Virus record (IMG/VR): IMGVR_UViG_3300015195_000003
Location: 1 to 49,980 of that record
Source of the DNA: a virus
Strand: one strand, 5' to 3'
DNA length: 49,980 nt
The position numbers and the translations under genes were made by a program. Shown in pieces: positions 4,479 through 44,404 of the stretch. Position 1 is the stretch's first letter; each line of letters begins with the position of its first letter. Below the pieces are notes generated by a model. It was given only the letters and a program-made list of their open reading frames with translations, was not told the DNA's origin and did no database searches.

Positions 4479-4507
4479 ATTATACATACTTAGACATAGT
4501 TTGTCAA
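4479..4507 (-). promoter_or_regulatory. GTCTAA-box promoter: TTGACA-aactat-GTCTAA-gtatg-TATAAT
   Basis: Perfect hexamers with a 17-nt spacer, nearly identical to the promoter at 1505-1533. Here the ATG (4450) lies 28 nt downstream. Confidence 0.6.
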
Positions 4508-10938: not shown

Positions 10939-10967
10939 ATTATACATGGTTAGACATGGTTTGTCAA
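10939..10967 (-). promoter_or_regulatory. GTCTAA-box promoter: TTGACA-aaccat-GTCTAA-ccatg-TATAAT
   Basis: Perfect hexamers with a 17-nt spacer, read from the reverse complement. Confidence 0.6.
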
Positions 10968-20505: not shown

Positions 20506-20535
20506 AAGTTAGCAGAGTTAGACAATCAATGTCAA
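20506..20535 (-). promoter_or_regulatory. GTCTAA-box promoter: TTGACA-ttgatt-GTCTAA-ctctg-cTAACTT
   Basis: The -35 abuts the major tail stop. GTCTAA at 20518-20523. The ATG (20499) lies 18 nt after the box. The -10 is weak. Confidence 0.45.
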
Positions 20536-28671: not shown

Positions 28672-28700
28672 ATTTAGCAGACTTAGACAGCGGTTGTCAA
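28672..28700 (-). promoter_or_regulatory. GTCTAA-box promoter: TTGACA-accgct-GTCTAA-gtctg-cTAAATT
   Basis: The -35 abuts the upstream stop (28701). GTCTAA at 28683-28688. The ATG (28664) lies 6 nt after TAAATT. Confidence 0.5.
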
Positions 28701-35015: not shown

Positions 35016-36764
35016 TTAGAAGACTCTATCCGTTAATCCAGCCGTATACGCATCATTTACTACCATCTCCTCGCCTCCTACAGTCGATATAACATCAGGT
35101 GTTGGTGCATCCTGACTAAATGCTTGATATGCAAGATTTGGCCAATTGTAGACCGTTCCGTAATGACAATAATCAGGTGCGTGATCGCTCTCTTTTACCG
35201 GATCATCTGACCATGTACCGTCGGGCTTTCGCTTCTTTGAATAACCAAGAAAATCGTTTCGACTGTTGGGTGTTTTCTCCATGACGAACTTACCTCGTCT
35301 TTCATCAATGAAGTTTCGAACATGTGGGATGCCGTTCTCCTTTAGATACAGTTTAGAAACGTCTTTCATCTCACAATTGACGGTTTGACAGCTAATCCCG
35401 TGAAGCATTTCGTGAGTGATCTTTGCAGGCTCGGGAATAGGACAACCGTATTTTCTTCTGTCTGCAATTTCAGTCAACCCGTGATAGTCAGGCACCCAAA
35501 CACTAATATGTGTAAAGAATTCAGCGTAATTAACTTCATAACCACCTTCGGGAATCCATGAAAGCAATTGTTCCCGCGTCACCTCTTTAAGATGCGGGTC
35601 AACTAAATCCATTGCTTGAAGCTTCTGGATGATTTGAATAATGATTGCCTGTGTTGTCGACTCGGTGATATAACACTCGTTAAAAACAGTCCACTCCATT
35701 TTCTCGATACGAACGTCGACAAATCCAATAGCGTCAGGGTGTGTTTTCGCGTATCCGAAATCCTCCCATATTTGAATTGAGCGGTCTTTTGGTATCACAA
35801 ATCCTGGGTGATTGTTTTCAATCTCGTCAAAATGTGGGTAAATAAGACCGCTGGAATCAGGCTTTTGGCACATCCATTGAGCCAAGAACGTTTCACGGTC
35901 AAGCGTTTTCACACGCGTTATTAAATCGGACCACTTGAAATAGCCTGAGAACTTGGTGAGGTCAGGCGGTAACAAATCACGACCACCGAACTTTGCGTCA
36001 AAGACATCATAGATTTGCTGTTGCATTAAAGGATCAGTCGGCCACGGCTCCATGACTTCCCAAACACACCATGCAAAAACCTCGGCAATCTTATCGTCAA
36101 TTAACCGCTGCATTGGCCCATGGGCGTACTTTCTTGTCGATCCCAAAATCGTTGTTGCACGAATTTTATCAGTCGAATTAGGCATTGATAAAGCCTCCTG
36201 CAAGATTGGCCAAGCAATCAATTCCACCTCGTCAGCTTTTAGCTTTTGTGGATGCGGTGAGTTAACCCCAGCAATGGTAGCAATTAGCACTTGAAGCCAT
36301 GATTTGTTAAGAAATGTCGTTCGACCCAGTGTTACTTTTCCTTTAACGGATGCGGCTAGTTCGTCGTCGTCTTCAAGAAAGCGGCGGATGTATCCAAAAC
36401 ATCTCAATGCTTGTTTTTCAATTGCTCCGAAGTTTGCTCCTTCACAATCATCATCTGCCAATGCGTCAAGAATGGCGAGTATGGCAAAGTCAATTGTTTT
36501 TCCTCCGTTACGATTAGCGAGCGCCAAAATAACGTCAAACTTTTCAAAGAAAGCGGCGGCGAGAAACTCAAAGGGTGCGACGTGATTACTGCAGATCTGA
36601 GTCGTCGGGATCGAAGTGTGAAATCTCTTCTCGATGTATCGATGGAGTGCCTTCTTCTTCTGCGGATACGTCCACCGTGGGTGTTTCTTCAAGAGCTTCA
36701 AGAAGTTCTGTCGGGTCGGCCGCTTCAATGTCGGGTTGTTGTCCAATGTTGGAAATTTGCTCAT
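35016..36764 (-). CDS. terL: Terminase large subunit
   Basis: 582 aa. An N-terminal ATPase-like region (LALANRNGGKTIDFAILAIL...) is followed by a nuclease-sized C-terminal half. Located immediately upstream of the portal region. Confidence 0.85.
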   Translation of the reverse strand: MSKFPTLDNNPTLKRPTRQNFLKLLKKHPRWTYPQKKKALHRYIEKRFHTSIPTTQICSNHVAPFEFLAAAFFEKFDVILALANRNGGKTIDFAILAILDALADDDCEGANFGAIEKQALRCFGYIRRFLEDDDELAASVKGKVTLGRTTFLNKSWLQVLIATIAGVNSPHPQKLKADEVELIAWPILQEALSMPNSTDKIRATTILGSTRKYAHGPMQRLIDDKIAEVFAWCVWEVMEPWPTDPLMQQQIYDVFDAKFGGRDLLPPDLTKFSGYFKWSDLITRVKTLDRETFLAQWMCQKPDSSGLIYPHFDEIENNHPGFVIPKDRSIQIWEDFGYAKTHPDAIGFVDVRIEKMEWTVFNECYITESTTQAIIIQIIQKLQAMDLVDPHLKEVTREQLLSWIPEGGYEVNYAEFFTHISVWVPDYHGLTEIADRRKYGCPIPEPAKITHEMLHGISCQTVNCEMKDVSKLYLKENGIPHVRNFIDERRGKFVMEKTPNSRNDFLGYSKKRKPDGTWSDDPVKESDHAPDYCHYGTVYNWPNLAYQAFSQDAPTPDVISTVGGEEMVVNDAYTAGLTDRVF

Positions 36765-37164
36765 TATTCAGTACAAAAAAATTATTGGTTTGCTTTTTAC
36801 TATTATCAACTATAGGAGCCTTTTGTCCATATTGTTCTGGCATTCCTCTTTCAAAGACTTTCCAAGCCAAGGGCCCAGCATCTCGATCTGCTCCATTTCT
36901 TATTATAGAGTTTATTCGATCGCCTGCCAATTCAAGCAAGTTATTTTGGGCTCTTTCCATTGCGTCCAGAAATAGAGCGTCAATTTTACACCGATCATAG
37001 AAGGCAGTTTTCGAAACTCCAGCGTAAATGCAGGCTTTACGGACACTTAATCCGTTCTGTAAACCACTCAGAAGTAAGCGGACATGTGCCTCATCAATCT
37101 TTGTAGGTCGACCCAGTGTTTTTCCCTGACTGACGGTCGGTGGATTTGGGTTTTGATTATCCAT
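36586..37164 (-). CDS. Terminase small subunit candidate (HTH, acidic C-terminal tail)
   Basis: GRPTKIDEAHVRLLLSGLQNGLSVRKACIYAGVSKTAFYDRC is a typical small-terminase HTH opening. The 3' 179 nt overlap the TerL ORF out of frame. Confidence 0.6.
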   Translation of the reverse strand: MDNQNPNPPTVSQGKTLGRPTKIDEAHVRLLLSGLQNGLSVRKACIYAGVSKTAFYDRCKIDALFLDAMERAQNNLLELAGDRINSIIRNGADRDAGPLAWKVFERGMPEQYGQKAPIVDNSKKQTNNFFVLNNEQISNIGQQPDIEAADPTELLEALEETPTVDVSAEEEGTPSIHREEISHFDPDDSDLQ

Positions 37165-38336: not shown

Positions 38337-39110
38337 TTAGACTATAATAGCCTCGGCCGCTTTCCATGCGGTTTGTCCCTGACGGATGATTTGTTTGGCA
38401 TTTTCTTTCTTTTGTTTATGCGTTATTGCATAGGTCAAAGCGTTGTAATAGCCCCAAACACTTTTATCCTTTTCAGTTTCGTAGGATGTTTTAGCCTCGT
38501 CGAGTAAATAAGCAGGTAAGGCTAAATTTTCTTTATCAAAGTGACTATCAGCATTAATGACAGGCGTTTTCGCCATCGCTTGAATCTTCGGAAGTTGCTT
38601 TCCAAAAATATCAATGTGATGTTTATACGCTTTTGAGCATTGCTCAATCATTGACGCATCAGCAAGTCCTTTGACGTTCCCCATGTGTCTGTATTGAAAT
38701 TGTAGAAATTCTGATCCGATAACCATACCGTTCAAACAAACGAGTCGGTAGGCTCCGAATATGATTTGGAGTGCGCCGTGTCCGTTGTATGAATTCTTAA
38801 CAGTTATCATCATTTGAATAATATCGCCCTTGGCGATCTCCATTTCCACTTTAGGAAAAAGCATTTGGTAATAAAGATGTGCGCCGTCGTTGAGAAGCGT
38901 AATGCTCTCTTTGACATTGTACTTTTTACCTGCTTCTCGAAAAGCGTCAATGACAGCCTCGTGTTTGATGAGTCCGTAGCCATCAGAAACAACTCCAAGT
39001 GGAGTGTTTGTGTCAGTCCGAACAACAGCTCGGCGGCCTGGGATTTCGATATTCTTACCGAAGTAAATCGGTTGTAGTTCTACTGGAAAATTGTAATTTG
39101 TGTCTTGCAT
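38337..39110 (-). CDS. DUF932-family protein (phage/plasmid-associated)
   Basis: ...TPLGVVSDGYGLIKHEAVIDAF...VKNSYNGHGALQIIFGAYRLVCLNGMV fits the DUF932 pattern. Strong SD (GAGGAGGTGA). Confidence 0.7.
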   Translation of the reverse strand: MQDTNYNFPVELQPIYFGKNIEIPGRRAVVRTDTNTPLGVVSDGYGLIKHEAVIDAFREAGKKYNVKESITLLNDGAHLYYQMLFPKVEMEIAKGDIIQMMITVKNSYNGHGALQIIFGAYRLVCLNGMVIGSEFLQFQYRHMGNVKGLADASMIEQCSKAYKHHIDIFGKQLPKIQAMAKTPVINADSHFDKENLALPAYLLDEAKTSYETEKDKSVWGYYNALTYAITHKQKKENAKQIIRQGQTAWKAAEAIIV

Positions 39111-39145
39111 GTGTATTCACCTCCTCTCGTATTGAGATTAATTAG

Positions 39146-39174
39146 ATTATAGCAAACAGTCTGCTATAAGTCAA
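39146..39174 (-). promoter_or_regulatory. Promoter TTGACT-TATAGCAGACTGTTTGC-TATAAT (the same element with its core inverted)
   Basis: Identical to the promoter at 38033-38061, except that the central 7-mer is GACTGTT instead of its reverse complement AACAGTC. Confidence 0.65.
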
Positions 39175-39201
39175 GGAGCAAACCGGTGAATTGATCAGGG
39201 G

Positions 39202-39504
39202 TCAGGAATTGATTTTAAAGCGGATATAATAGATCGCGTCAAGCACTTGATCTGGGTACAATTCCAATAAGGTCTCAAGCAGTTCCTTTTTGCTTTTGAA
39301 TCCGTCGGTTTGTGCCATTTCGCTTGTGATCTTCTCAACGGGTAAATGTTCCACGCTTAAAACCTTGGCGCGGATTTTATCTCGTCCACTTAAAAAGACG
39401 ACATCATCGCCTGCCTTGACCGAACTAAAGGCACGAATCGTCGAGGTCTTTTCGCCTGCACGAATCATTTGCATGTATTGTTTTTTAAAAAAGAGTGTTG
39501 GCAT
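39202..39504 (-). CDS. ASCH-domain (PUA-like) protein
   Basis: 100 aa. The opening FKKQYMQMIRAGEKTSTIR is typical of ASCH. The start codon directly abuts the ATPase-GNAT stop. Confidence 0.65.
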   Translation of the reverse strand: MPTLFFKKQYMQMIRAGEKTSTIRAFSSVKAGDDVVFLSGRDKIRAKVLSVEHLPVEKITSEMAQTDGFKSKKELLETLLELYPDQVLDAIYYIRFKINS

Positions 39505-40557
39505 TTAGTTATATTCCCAAGAGCAAGTATTTCTATTGGTTGTGACTGTTTTATTGAGATCAGGCATTCCTGAATTCGTGCCGATAAGTGAAACGCGTCC
39601 TTGATGCGTGAGTCTCCAAGGTTTTCTAAACGATTTATTGAGGGCAGGGTGTGAAGTCGTAATCGTCAAACGAAATCCACGCTTAGTATAATACATTCCG
39701 ACAAAGTTTAACAATGCCTTTCCGATACCTATTCCTTGATAGTCAGGGAGAACCACAACTCGTGATACTTTCTTCATATTCTTGACTGCAGGATGTGGGA
39801 AATGCAAAACAGCAATAAAGCCAACCAATTTGCCAAAGAGTGTGGCGACGAAGACACGCGCGGCTGGATTGAGCGAGGCGTTCATATAGTGATAGTTTCT
39901 AAAATAGCGCCATTGAGCATTTGTTCCTTCTCTAATAACAAGCTCAATTGGCTCTCTTTTTTTTTTGACATCAATCATTTTCATATCATCAGTTGAGAAA
40001 ACCCAATCAGGATCTAAAAAGTCTAAAATATCATAGTGACAACTGACAGCGATAAATTGTTTTTGTTGTTTTCGGATATTCTTTGAAACCACCATAGAAC
40101 AAACCTTTGCCACGTCGCGGTCAACCACTGAGGTAAATTCGTCAAAGATGATTTGTTTACTTTCCGATAACAAATGATAGGCAAGATCAACGCGCATTTT
40201 TTCACCGTTTGATAAAACATGGTAGGGCTTAAGCCATGAAGGCGGTGAAGAGAATCCGACCTGCGTAAAAACTTGCGTTATTTCTTCGACAGTACGATTG
40301 ATAGGCATTTCATCAATAATAGGCTTCTGCGTGAATACAGGGCTTTGTGTGATACTGAAAATCTCTCGTGCGACTGTTGATTTACCCGTCCCACTTCGTC
40401 CCACTATTGCCCCGATGTTCCACGACTCGGGAAGATCGAGCGCGCCAGTAAATGTTTGGGTTTTGTGTTGTTCTTGGAGATCAAACATTCCGGTGATTTT
40501 GTTGACGCGAAACGATTCGACAGTCGGGGTGGTTTTTACAATGTTAAAATTATTCAT
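39505..40557 (-). CDS. Fusion of an ABC-type ATPase domain and a GNAT acyltransferase domain
   Basis: Walker A GRSGTGKST, signature-like LSNGEKMR, Walker B IIFDEF and an H-loop-like SCH. The C-terminal GNAT motif A is VVVLPDYQGIGIGKALL. Confidence 0.75.
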   Translation of the reverse strand: MNNFNIVKTTPTVESFRVNKITGMFDLQEQHKTQTFTGALDLPESWNIGAIVGRSGTGKSTVAREIFSITQSPVFTQKPIIDEMPINRTVEEITQVFTQVGFSSPPSWLKPYHVLSNGEKMRVDLAYHLLSESKQIIFDEFTSVVDRDVAKVCSMVVSKNIRKQQKQFIAVSCHYDILDFLDPDWVFSTDDMKMIDVKKKREPIELVIREGTNAQWRYFRNYHYMNASLNPAARVFVATLFGKLVGFIAVLHFPHPAVKNMKKVSRVVVLPDYQGIGIGKALLNFVGMYYTKRGFRLTITTSHPALNKSFRKPWRLTHQGRVSLIGTNSGMPDLNKTVTTNRNTCSWEYN

Positions 40558-40564
40558 GGTTTAT

Positions 40565-40581
40565 AATGTTATAATAACATT
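40565..40581. promoter_or_regulatory. 17-bp perfect palindrome AATGTTAT-a-ATAACATT in a 26-bp divergent intergenic region
   Basis: Read directly. It overlaps both TATAAT copies (40562-67 and 40570-75) between the ATGs at 40557 (minus) and 40584 (plus). Confidence 0.55.
40567..40575 (+). promoter_or_regulatory. Extended -10 promoter TGtTATAAT
   Basis: The HNH ATG (40584) begins 8 nt downstream. No clear -35 is present. Confidence 0.45.
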
Positions 40582-40583
40582 GT

Positions 40584-41000
40584 ATGCCGTTCAAAGACAA
40601 TGTGGAAAAAGCAAAGTATATGCGAAAATATCGCCTCGACAGACGCGCTCGAGGTTTATGCGTTATTTGTGGAGAAAAACGTATATCGGAATGGTTTTGT
40701 GTCAAACATCTCGCAAAGGGAAACGAAAAAAGTAAGCAGCAAAATATAGACTCTCGTCTTGAGTGTATCAATCATTATGGAGCTTTTTGCGTTTGTTGCG
40801 GAGAAAAAGAGGATAAGTTTTTAAGTATTGATCATGTAAATAACGATGGCTTTATTCATCGAAAAACTACCAAAAACTTTAGAAATATTTATTTGTGGCT
40901 AAAAAAGAATAATTATCCAAATATCGTTCAGGTGCTTTGTTTCAATTGCAATCTAGGAAAAAGAGTTAACGGTGGAATTTGCCCTCATCTTAAAGCGTGA
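40584..41000 (+). CDS. HNH endonuclease (free-standing, homing-endonuclease-like placement)
   Basis: CVCCGEKEDKFLSIDHVNNDG...LCFNCNLGK contains the HNH core with flanking Cys pairs. It is on the opposite strand from its neighbours, and its 3' end overlaps the ParB-like gene by 11 nt. Confidence 0.8.
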   Translation: MPFKDNVEKAKYMRKYRLDRRARGLCVICGEKRISEWFCVKHLAKGNEKSKQQNIDSRLECINHYGAFCVCCGEKEDKFLSIDHVNNDGFIHRKTTKNFRNIYLWLKKNNYPNIVQVLCFNCNLGKRVNGGICPHLKA

Positions 41001-41703
41001 GGATTTTGCATGGCAAACCTTGTTCTTGGAGCTTATTATATGTTGCCTCTTGCTCGGACTCGTCTTTGCATTCGACAACCACTTGAAACTGCGCTTTATA
41101 TTCGCCGTCTTTCTTTTTTGCAGGCTCCTGTGTGGTCATTTTTGCCTGATCTTGTGCAAAGATTTTCAAACTAACAGGCGCTTGTAACTCCAATTTATAA
41201 TCAGGTGAGTGTAACAATTCGACGTGCGGTTGAAGTAATGTATATAATGCTTTTTGATCATACGCGCCTGCTGGGTCATTATCGGATATCCCGTACTCAA
41301 GCATCATTTGTTCGATTGAAGGAAATTGCTCTGACTCCATCTTGCCGTCTAAAACAGCGCGATATTTTTTGACTCCTTCAACTTCTTCCTCTGCGACGCC
41401 AAGTTCTGTCACCCAAACTTCGTTGAATTGTCCGACGCGATTGATAGCGTGTTCTCCAGCTTCGTCGGACCACGTGAGTTCGTTTTCATTTAAAAATCTG
41501 ATTGCTCGAAGGCGCATATTTCCTCCAACAACGACGCCCTCTGAATTCACAAAAATTGGTTTGTATTGACCCAAACGACCGACTTGTTTTCTCAATCGAA
41601 GCATGTCTTCATCCGTTATCGTTCGAGGATTTTTGTCCCATTCGATCAGGGAGTCAAGCGTGGCGAGGATCTTTCCGTTTGTGGTTGTTCGCTTCTCTAA
41701 CAT
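40990..41703 (-). CDS. ParB N-terminal domain (ParB/Srx-like) protein
   Basis: IEWDKNPRTITDEDMLRLRKQVGRLGQYKPIFVNSEGVVVGGNMRLRAI fits the ParBc motif series. No C-terminal methyltransferase motif was seen. Confidence 0.7.
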   Translation of the reverse strand: MLEKRTTTNGKILATLDSLIEWDKNPRTITDEDMLRLRKQVGRLGQYKPIFVNSEGVVVGGNMRLRAIRFLNENELTWSDEAGEHAINRVGQFNEVWVTELGVAEEEVEGVKKYRAVLDGKMESEQFPSIEQMMLEYGISDNDPAGAYDQKALYTLLQPHVELLHSPDYKLELQAPVSLKIFAQDQAKMTTQEPAKKKDGEYKAQFQVVVECKDESEQEATYNKLQEQGLPCKILTL

Positions 41704-41710
41704 TAAAAAT

Positions 41711-41739
41711 ATTATGCCGAGTTAGACGGGATTTGTCAA
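41711..41739 (-). promoter_or_regulatory. GTCTAA-box promoter: TTGACA-aatccc-GTCTAA-ctcgg-CATAAT
   Basis: Read from the reverse complement. The ParB-like ATG (41703) lies 7 nt after the -10. Confidence 0.6.
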
Positions 41740-41980: not shown

Positions 41981-42784
41981 TCAAAGTCGTCCAGAGTCTC
42001 CTTTTGCATACGCGAAATGGTTCGTTAATATTTCATAACCGTCCGGCAAAACACGAATCATGTGTTCAAACATCGCAGAGTTTGCCCCGTCGGCCGTTTT
42101 CAACTCCCACCCATCATCGTCAATTTTTCCCCATTTATCCCGTCCGTTGGTCAAGCAAGGTTCAAGACAAAGAATCTTTCCAGCAACCAGCTTTTCCTCC
42201 ATGTATTTTTCATATTGGTCAAACTGTTTAGGATCTTGAAAATAAGGATTAGGAACTTGATAAAACGCGTTCTCGTGCATTTCTTTACCGATATAGTGAC
42301 CACATAATTGATGATTAATCAAAAGTTTTCGTTCATTTGCGACGCGTTGCATCGCGGCGGCTACTTCCCCGATCATGACTCCTTCTTTGACTTTGGCAAT
42401 GCCAGCATAAAGCACTTTTTTCGCATAACGCAAAAGTATTTCGTCTTTTTCGGAGAGTTTGCCAACACCAAGTGAGAAAGCGGCGTCGCCACAATTCCCC
42501 TCACTATCACGAATACCAATATCGAGATTAACAAGATCGCCTTCCTCAAGAAAAATGCTTTCACTCGGGATGCCGTGAGCTATCACGTTGTTAACGGAAA
42601 TACATGCGACGGCTGGAAAGGCTGTTCGCGCCCAATTTGGTTTGTAGCCTTGATTGTAGGATGTTCCCCCTAACTTTTTCAGCTCAGACGCTCCAACTGC
42701 GTTAATCGTAAAAGTATCAATGCCTGGGCGAACATGCTCTTTCATTTTAAGAAGAACTTTTGAGACTATTTCATGGGCTTTCAT
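41981..42784 (-). CDS. map: Type I methionine aminopeptidase (peptidase M24A)
   Basis: CISVNNVIAHGIP, GDLVNLDIG, CGHYIGKEMHE, LEP and DGWELKTADGANSAMFEHMI line up with the metal-ligand blocks of E. coli Map (CISINEVVCHGIP, GDIVNIDV, CGHGIGRGFHE, IEP, DGWTVKTKDRSLSAQYEHTI). Confidence 0.85.
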   Translation of the reverse strand: MKAHEIVSKVLLKMKEHVRPGIDTFTINAVGASELKKLGGTSYNQGYKPNWARTAFPAVACISVNNVIAHGIPSESIFLEEGDLVNLDIGIRDSEGNCGDAAFSLGVGKLSEKDEILLRYAKKVLYAGIAKVKEGVMIGEVAAAMQRVANERKLLINHQLCGHYIGKEMHENAFYQVPNPYFQDPKQFDQYEKYMEEKLVAGKILCLEPCLTNGRDKWGKIDDDGWELKTADGANSAMFEHMIRVLPDGYEILTNHFAYAKGDSGRL

Positions 42785-44374: not shown

Positions 44375-44404
44375 AATATAGCAGACTTAGACACGCCTTG
44401 TAAA
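44375..44404 (-). promoter_or_regulatory. GTCTAA-box promoter: TTTACA-aggcgt-GTCTAA-gtctg-cTATATT
   Basis: Read from the reverse complement. The ATG (44368) lies 6 nt after TATATT. Confidence 0.5.

Follow-up and report, generated by a model that had tools for sequence, protein, structure and literature searches.

A ParB-like protein and an ABC-ATPase–GNAT fusion form a widespread gene pair linked to phage packaging genes

The ParB/ABC::GNAT pair is the conserved unit of the locus

We examined a block of genes at positions 38337-41739 of a viral DNA of 49,980 nucleotides (nt), IMG/VR record IMGVR_UViG_3300015195_000003, the whole of which is called the window below. From a promoter with a GTCTAA box, the block runs along the minus strand through genes for a ParB-like protein, an ATP-binding cassette (ABC) ATPase fused to a GNAT acyltransferase (ABC::GNAT), an ASCH protein and a DUF932 protein. 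An HNH endonuclease gene, the only plus-strand gene of the block, is set between the first two (Table 1). The original prediction, made from the letters alone, had read these genes as one module for the acylation of nucleic acid. Its five domain calls (ParB, ABC-ATPase, GNAT, ASCH and DUF932) all proved correct in kind and position by Pfam, PHROG, homologues and Foldseek, and the promoter, the inserted opposite-strand HNH gene and the TAAATG junction, at which the ASCH start abuts the fusion stop, are present as described. The four-gene block did not survive as a functional unit. The real unit is a ParB N-terminal domain (ParB-N) protein and the ABC-ATPase::GNAT fusion, which are obligate partners.

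This partnership follows from near-universal adjacency, a fixed overlap, one-protein fusions and three-gene splits. We compared 167 related loci from viral contigs and from bacterial and archaeal genomes, detecting ParB with a hidden Markov model. A ParB homologue lies directly upstream of the fusion gene, on the same strand, in all of the first 81 loci and in 160 of the full 167. The two genes overlap by exactly 22 nt in 107 loci, and these bases are dual-coded: the fusion N-terminus, M-x-x-F-(D/N)-I-V-K, and the ParB tail, C-(R/K)-x-L-T-L-stop, share them. ParB, ABC and GNAT are joined in a single polypeptide in at least 12 of the 150 best cluster representatives (424-623 amino acids (aa), mostly 558-623), with a ParB part that is in most of them full-length, including its C-terminal mini-domain, and is followed by ABC::GNAT. 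ABC and GNAT are separate genes with an annotated 4-nt overlap in Lactococcus P335 and an Oenococcus phage, and are annotated as split, with a gap, in Streptococcus 315.4.

The fusion family is large. It comprises at least 7,799 proteins at E<=1e-10, and an exhaustive profile search gave 896 clusters (50% identity) at E<=1e-30. Matches fall in at least 579 IMG/VR stretches and at least 569 genome stretches, the latter including many from Planctomycetota and some from archaeal bins. The window fusion is a clear member of phrog_11143 (E 8.5e-91), whose function is unassigned in PHROG, and the family bears the JGI/COG-style name 'ABC-type ATPase with predicted acetyltransferase domain'. A limited literature search found no paper on the pair, its overlap, its terminase linkage or its function.

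Domains of the ABC::GNAT fusion and its ParB-like partner

By its motifs and predicted fold, the fusion is a member of the ABC ATPase superfamily joined to a GNAT acyltransferase, with the motifs that the original prediction had named. Pfam assigns ABC_tran (E 1.3e-8), Acetyltransf_7 (4.6e-10), Acetyltransf_1 (5.7e-9) and also Acetyltransf_10, the GNAT families spanning E 5e-10 to 1e-7, together with a weak SMC_N signal (1.4e-3). A Foldseek search of the PDB with an AlphaFold2 (AF2) model (predicted local distance difference test (pLDDT) 84.8), the kind of structure search suggested beforehand, matched ABC nucleotide-binding domains (HlyB, MsbA and others) for the first part and GNATs (2ae6, 1y9k) for the second. 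Across an alignment of 34 sequences, Walker A (GRSGTGKS), the signature (LSNGEKMR), Walker B (IIFDEF), the D-loop (SVVD) and the H-loop (CH) are invariant; a Q-loop glutamine is not evident in the ABC domain. The acyl-CoA motif of the GNAT domain, Q274-G-x-G-x-G279, is likewise invariant in this alignment and therefore argues for catalysis.

We rejected two assignments for this protein. A role in ABC transport is contradicted by the neighbourhoods, none of which holds a permease and which consist of ParB and terminase genes. Names like 'siderophore transporter' in databases come from annotation transfer, and the GenBank names of the Firmicute split genes, 'ABC iron siderophore transporter' and 'DNA modification methylase', mislead in the same way. 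Membership of the TmcA/NAT10 family also failed, since Pfam gave no match to DUF1726, a RecD-like helicase, GNAT_acetyltr_2 or a tRNA-binding domain, TmcA (2zpa) ranked only 34th in Foldseek with a template-modelling (TM) score of 0.28, and NAT10 reached E 0.058. When the GNAT domain alone was compared with PDB sequences, the best match was the histone acetyltransferase HAT1 (E 3.4e-4), which spans the generic acyl-CoA core only; the NAT10 match covers motif A only, and a diamine acetyltransferase is among the weak matches. As judged from these matches, the search is uninformative on substrate.

A few family members carry insertions or additions. The homologue P0157 contains an intein (Hint plus a LAGLIDADG homing endonuclease) in the P-loop region of its ABC domain, which is not a functional partner domain, and P0197 may bear another insertion; no extra Pfam domain was found in the other long family proteins. 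In a Planctomycetia metagenome-assembled genome (MAG), an open reading frame (ORF) of 917 aa (locus L164, 7941-10694) joins ABC::GNAT to a lambda-family portal. Although formally a fusion, it is probably a decayed prophage, because it is a single case in a high-GC MAG and no terminase lies between the parts.

The window ParB has no Pfam match of its own. It matches PHROG ParB families at E 6e-11, and its homologues at E 1e-25, proteins of about 170 aa, bear PF02195. With its AF2 model (pLDDT 86.7), Foldseek ranks ParB-N domains first, although the E-values are weak (2e-3 to 0.1). Its motifs are NPR, G-G-N-M-R-L-R-A (box II-like) and DN..G..D, and N25-P-R27 (box I-like) and G60-G-N-M-R64 (box II) are invariant. 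The nucleotide specificity of the ParB-CTPase fold is unpredictable from sequence (PMC12704722). A lineage-specific, beta-rich insert of about 50 aa (approximately aa 75-127; region 41434-41480) is found in the window protein and its close relatives and is missing from the typical 170-aa members. Since tblastn with the window ParB found no match in phages, a typical family member of 174 aa was used as the query instead, and it located the subfamily in 443 GenBank phage records, where many of the proteins are named DNA methylase and many lie at the left end of the genome. We excluded a canonical partition ParB, given the missing helix-turn-helix (HTH) and dimerisation domains and a downstream partner that is ABC::GNAT, not ParA.

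The C-terminal mini-domain of ParB, about 35 aa long, occurs alone as an ORF of 54-78 aa before the fusion in Burkholderia phiE255 and four Planctomycete loci. For this reason we regard it as the invariant partner of ABC::GNAT, and probably as its docking element.

The pair lies before packaging genes, in a slot also used by ParB-methyltransferase fusions

In most relatives, across many phyla, the pair heads the packaging operon and is placed directly against terS/terL, on their upstream side. On viral contigs the gene after the fusion is of a small-terminase type (HTH_Tnp_1_2, DUF5681, Sf6_terminase or GP3_package) and the next is a large terminase, while the bacterial and archaeal genome loci have Terminase_3, Terminase_6 and GpA terminases downstream, plus portals. 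The order is also seen in the cultured phages Gordonia NHagos (genes 1-4), Pasteurella Pmp13, Lactococcus P335, Leptospira LE3 and Streptococcus 315.4. Because viral contigs, genome loci and cultured phages share it, the linkage to packaging genes is independent of terminase family (three families). In the window, terS/terL lie about 2.3 kb beyond ABC::GNAT, after ASCH, DUF932 and small ORFs. In the Mu-like phiE255 the pair follows the tail-fibre genes and is not beside the terminase.

Some loci have further genes at the borders of the pair. A Formyl_trans_N (PF00551) gene comes directly after ABC::GNAT in two unrelated phages, as NHagos gp3 (L083, 1826-2470) and phiE255 gp30 (L082, 5080-5694). 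In a marine/metagenomic group (L086, 3243-7085; also L002 and L087), ParB is directly preceded by two glycosyltransferase genes, an MptE-like gene and a CTP_transf_3 (cytidylyltransferase) gene, perhaps a cassette for sugar nucleotides or glycosylation.

Fusions of ParB to N6_N4 DNA methyltransferases have an N-terminal part that is homologous to the window ParB (E 1e-15 to 1e-18), with up to 88% of the window protein covered and 33% identity over its aa 11-219. We sampled four loci with such fusions (L173, L174, L175 and L176). The fusion is directly upstream of terS/terL in L173 and L175; a GpA terminase is 3 kb away in L174, and in L176 an overlapping ORF of 147 aa follows at the contig end. 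Thus the expectation that ParB domains recur with DNA-modifying enzymes held, down to homologous fusions in the same slot. A survey published in 2025 on the ParB-CTPase fold describes phage ParB-fold fusions to N6/N4 methyltransferases, DUF4417 and the ASCH-like DUF3850, archaeal ParB-ASCH fusions and a GTP-binding bacterial ParB-acetyltransferase fusion, and does not mention the ABC::GNAT pair (PMC12704722). The simplest reading of these sequence relationships is that ParB-N may be an adaptor whose DNA-modifying effectors can be exchanged within a fixed slot, ABC::GNAT being one of them.

Junction alleles, promoters and neighbouring genes

Three states of the ParB/fusion junction occur in one phage lineage. 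The closest relative of the window (L085), with a fusion 73% identical, has the canonical 22-nt overlap (L085, 10001-10022); in L172 (4889-4915) the genes are abutted as TAA-a-ATG, with a 1-nt spacer; in the window they are split by the HNH gene. Neither relative has the HNH gene, so that comparison of the sequences marks it as a true insertion, a selfish element of 432 nt outside the module. Alleles without the overlap have a ParB tail recoded by synonymous changes, and the window relic of the overlap, ATGCAAAATCCTCACGCTTTAA, encodes the ParB tail only. The HNH gene and the intein of P0157 together indicate that homing elements target the ParB/ABC::GNAT locus repeatedly. No Shine-Dalgarno sequence was found before the window fusion gene, where the coupling to ParB is lost. 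The 26-nt gap between the divergent start codons of HNH and ABC::GNAT holds a 17-nt palindrome, AATGTTAT-T-ATAACATT (40565-40581).

The ParB promoter belongs to a family, TTGACA-N6-GTCTAA-N5-(-10), with seven minus-strand sites in the window against 0.95 expected by chance. The ParB ATG stands only 7 nt past the -10 hexamer, and the ParB mRNA is therefore probably leaderless. The same distance recurs in five of the seven promoters, which suggests leaderless mRNAs and, for GTCTAA, a site for a phage-specific regulator. Two other promoters of this type sit within the structural gene block, and this in turn suggests that ParB is co-regulated with late genes.

The window ASCH protein is, by its octapeptide and an acidic residue, of the YqfB type, as the original prediction had proposed. 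Its K19, T22, R24, D67 and Y83 align with K21, T24, R26, E74 and Y89 of YqfB, so that the protein retains the catalytic K, T and R as well as an acidic residue; H70 and D27 of YqfB are not conserved. The identity is 28%, the NCBIfam equivalog model gives 26.6 bits, far under its cut-off of 93, and a single close homologue was found in the databases. ASCH proteins of both octapeptide classes remove N4-acetylcytidine (ac4C) from tRNA (bioRxiv 10.64898/2026.02.27.708502). An ASCH gene of this GKTR type follows the GNAT in syntenic position in the window, L085 and L172, and one of a different class, GKER, follows it in Streptococcus and Oenococcus phages. Beyond these two lineages none was found beside the fusion in about 160 other loci (none at position +1 of 63 viral loci, none by jackhmmer over the 167 loci), and ASCH is not among the listed top families of the genome loci or of 120 neighbour-cluster representatives. 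The expected co-occurrence of ATPase-GNAT and ASCH was thus seen in two independent lineages, and ASCH is probably an occasional, lineage-specific accessory, recruited twice independently, rather than a constant partner. ASCH and formyltransferase enzymes both act on amines or N-acyl groups.

DUF932, which had been counted as part of the module, is a neighbour only. It has its own consensus sigma-70 promoter and a strong Shine-Dalgarno sequence, and it accompanies the pair in the close relatives L085 and L172, beyond which jackhmmer over the 167 loci found only one opposite-strand ORF, about 2 kb off in the unrelated L142. The literature gives no function for it. Just upstream of the ParB promoter lies an M24 metallopeptidase gene (PF00557, E 1.8e-30; 41981-42784, minus strand), which is unusual in a phage and is kept upstream of ParB in L085 and L172; the PF00557 family includes methionine aminopeptidases. 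Megablast of the block against GenBank phages gave no match, no tRNA genes or Rfam families were found in the window, and PADLOC returned only weak ATPase-domain matches (mad3, AbiLi) without system context.

Table 1. Features of the block and its context in the window
Feature	Position	Strand	Basis
Promoter TTGACA-N17-CATAAT with GTCTAA box in spacer	41711..41739	minus	sequence; seven-member family
ParB/Srx N-domain protein, 237 aa	40990..41703	minus	PHROG, PF02195 homologues, AF2 and Foldseek, locus synteny
ParB C-terminal mini-domain, ~35 aa, FQVVVEC..EQE..YN.L..G..CK.LTL	40993..41097	minus	family consensus; phrog_28816 match
Relic of ancestral 22-nt dual-coded ParB/ABC::GNAT overlap	40990..41011	minus	L085 alignment, L172 junction
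HNH endonuclease gene, splits ParB/ABC::GNAT junction	40584..41000	plus	phrog_4234, E 5e-7; missing from L085 and L172
ABC::GNAT fusion gene, 350 aa	39505..40557	minus	Pfam, PHROG, AF2, Foldseek
ABC-type ATPase domain of fusion, ~aa 1-200	39958..40557	minus	motifs, Pfam, Foldseek
GNAT acyltransferase domain of fusion, ~aa 205-350, acyl-CoA motif YQGIGIG	39505..39945	minus	Pfam, alignment, Foldseek
ASCH protein, 100 aa, YqfB type (G-E-K19-T-S-T22-I-R24)	39202..39504	minus	PF04266, E 5.8e-11
Sigma-70 promoter TTGACT-17-TATAAT, TG-extended, driving DUF932	39146..39174	minus	consensus sequence
DUF932 protein, 257 aa	38337..39110	minus	PF06067, E 8.5e-20
Terminase small subunit (context)	36586..37164	minus	PHROG terminase match
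Terminase large subunit (context)	35016..36764	minus	PHROG terminase match
TTGACA-N6-GTCTAA sites	1516-1533, 4490-4507, 10950-10967, 20518-20535, 28683-28700, 41722-41739, 44387-44404	minus	

Possible function of the pair

From the partnership, the genomic position, the intact ATPase and acyl-CoA motifs and the homology of ParB to methyltransferase fusions, we infer a substrate, a chemistry and a role for ATP. Our tentative proposal, which we rate at somewhat below an even chance, is that the pair modifies phage DNA before it is packaged, in a nucleoside triphosphate (NTP)-gated reaction that depends on acyl-CoA, and that ASCH is an optional deacylase. ParB-N would bind nucleotide through the conserved box II arginine (the invariant R64) and act as an NTP-binding adaptor, while its C-terminal mini-domain would tether ABC::GNAT. 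ATP-driven dimerisation of the ABC domains would bring two GNAT domains onto phage DNA, where they would use acyl-CoA to acylate an exocyclic amine of a base, the leading candidate being N4 of cytosine. The reaction would be timed after replication and before packaging, and its purpose would likely be protection from host restriction. In the window lineage, the YqfB-type ASCH amidohydrolase would serve as deacylase (for proofreading, salvage or reversal), and in some lineages ASCH or the formyltransferase would edit the acyl mark; HNH and DUF932 would stand outside the device. Acylating phage DNA from the same slot, the module would thus be the functional counterpart of the ParB-N-methyltransferase fusions. 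Of the earlier picture of a writer with a reader/eraser set for an acylated base, the ATPase-GNAT logic stands, ASCH is probably not a constant partner and DUF932 is no partner.

Several points weigh against this proposal. We know of no acylated base in phage DNA, and a limited literature search found nothing on acyl-deoxycytidine (acyl-dC) in phage DNA. The ABC domain resembles transporter-type nucleotide-binding domains and not DNA-binding ABC proteins, the PDB sequence search gave no specific similarity of the GNAT domain to nucleobase acetyltransferases, and neither Pfam nor Foldseek matched an HTH or dimerisation domain in the window ParB, so that an HTH for DNA binding is not recognisable in it. 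Accessory genes in general also tend to gather in the slot before terS. The activity of ASCH enzymes has so far been shown on free ac4C and tRNA, not on DNA (PMC6972931; bioRxiv 10.64898/2026.02.27.708502).

A broader claim would make ParB-N plus ABC::GNAT an unrecognised, very widespread class of NTP-gated DNA base N-acyltransferases (forming, for example, N4-acyl-deoxycytidine) that mark the genomes of phages from many bacterial and archaeal phyla right before these are packaged, with ASCH or formyltransferase as lineage-specific editors; we consider this doubtful. N4-acyl-dC is base-labile, and such a mark could therefore have escaped standard nucleoside analyses.

A rather unlikely alternative is that the fusion acetylates protein. 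Its target would be either a host factor (for example a defence protein) or a phage protein of packaging or structure, ParB would regulate the fusion or serve as its adaptor, and ATP-driven dimerisation would be the gate. The best PDB match of the GNAT domain, HAT1, would suit this, as would the co-location and probable co-expression of the module with terminase, portal and head genes, the continuous ABC::GNAT-portal ORF of one MAG and the methionine-aminopeptidase-type M24 gene just upstream in the window lineage; for most bacterial GNATs that have been characterised, the substrates are proteins or small molecules. However, the HAT1 match covers the generic core only, the portal fusion is single and probably decayed, the adjacency of ASCH would be left unexplained, and the obligate ParB partner is of a subfamily otherwise fused to DNA methyltransferases in the same slot. 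More improbable is a TmcA-like acetylation of host tRNA or rRNA, in which the fusion would form ac4C during infection and ASCH would erase or recycle it. TmcA and NAT10 do share the architecture of an NTPase and a GNAT, but here the ATPase is of the ABC class and not a RecD-like helicase, no tRNA-binding domain is present and the TmcA and NAT10 matches are remote. The analogy drawn in the original prediction is therefore sound for the combination of domains and not for kinship with TmcA. An ASCH gene follows the GNAT in two lineages, the window ASCH retains the catalytic residues of YqfB, and both octapeptide classes strip ac4C from tRNA, yet ASCH was not found beside the pair in about 160 loci, and the partner that stays constant is ParB, a DNA-associated module. 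No tRNA genes were found in the window, and a late, packaging-linked position suits DNA better than a takeover of translation.

The strict position before terS/terL across three terminase families would also fit a packaging accessory, in which, by analogy with the established ParB-SMC partnership, ParB-N and the ABC ATPase might form an NTP-driven clamp on concatemeric DNA near pac/cos, and the GNAT would act on a small molecule (polyamines, for example) or be regulatory. The weak SMC_N signal and the diamine acetyltransferase match agree with this, but the ATPase lacks both a coiled coil and a DNA-binding domain, the invariant acyl-CoA motif argues for catalysis, the phiE255 pair is not beside the terminase, other genes fill the stretch between the pair and terS in the window, and ParB-methyltransferase fusions in the same slot point to modification, not mechanics; we hold such a role to be quite improbable. 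We give almost no weight to the view that there is no module and that the block is a chance mosaic in the accessory-gene hot spot. It describes the inserted HNH gene and DUF932, with its own promoter and no co-occurrence beyond the close relatives and L142, and is refuted for the core by the adjacency of ParB and fusion, their fixed overlap and the fused and split variants.

If the DNA-acylation proposal is correct, the pair would represent a new chemical class of phage genome modification and would supply a function for a pair of genes that occurs in hundreds of 50%-identity protein clusters, in many bacterial phyla and in archaeal genome bins, with consequences for the evasion of restriction and defence, for sequencing artefacts and for enzyme tools. 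Whatever the target, the pair is a clean two-component system in cultured, tractable phages (P335, NHagos, Pmp13, phiE255 and LE3), and its adaptor would be one that serves differing effectors from a single genomic position.

Comparison with known systems

TmcA, NAT10 and Kre33 are, to our knowledge, the only characterised precedent for NTP hydrolysis supporting the acetylation of a nucleobase amine, and they share with the window fusion a P-loop NTPase and a GNAT in one polypeptide. TmcA differs in its RecD-like helicase module with DUF1726, in GNAT_acetyltr_2 and in its tRNA-binding domain, none of which is present here, and it has no ParB partner. Mom of phage Mu is a GNAT-fold modifier of DNA adenine that acts on an exocyclic base amine late in infection, against restriction; we know of no other precedent for a GNAT-fold DNA modifier. 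Like Mom, the fusion is a phage GNAT-fold protein, and in phiE255 it follows the tail-fibre genes, the position of mom in Mu. No sequence relationship was detected between the two, and Mom has neither an ATPase nor a ParB partner.

In chromosome segregation, the ParB-SMC partnership brings a ParB N-domain and an ABC-type ATPase together on DNA. The window pair has the same two components but lacks the coiled coil, the parS-binding HTH and ParA, and its ATPase is transporter-like and bears an enzyme domain. With the YqfB-type N4-acylcytosine amidohydrolases, the window ASCH shares its length of about 100 aa, the G-x-K-x-x-T-x-R octapeptide, an acidic residue at the E74 position and the Y89 equivalent; unlike them it scores below the equivalog cut-off at its low identity, has lost H70 and D27, is phage-encoded and is abutted to a GNAT gene. 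The fusion family itself is already catalogued as phrog_11143 and under its JGI name, in entries that record neither the ParB partnership nor the overlap or terminase linkage.

The nearest counterparts are the ParB-N-N6/N4 methyltransferase fusions of phages and prophages (PF02195+PF01555), which have a ParB of the same subfamily, occupy the same slot in L173 and L175 and are likewise built from ParB-N and an enzyme. Their effector is an S-adenosylmethionine (SAM) methyltransferase, whereas here it is a GNAT with an ABC ATPase, an extra NTPase. The window-type effector, moreover, is usually a separate, translationally coupled protein, predicted to dock through the small C-terminal domain of ParB.

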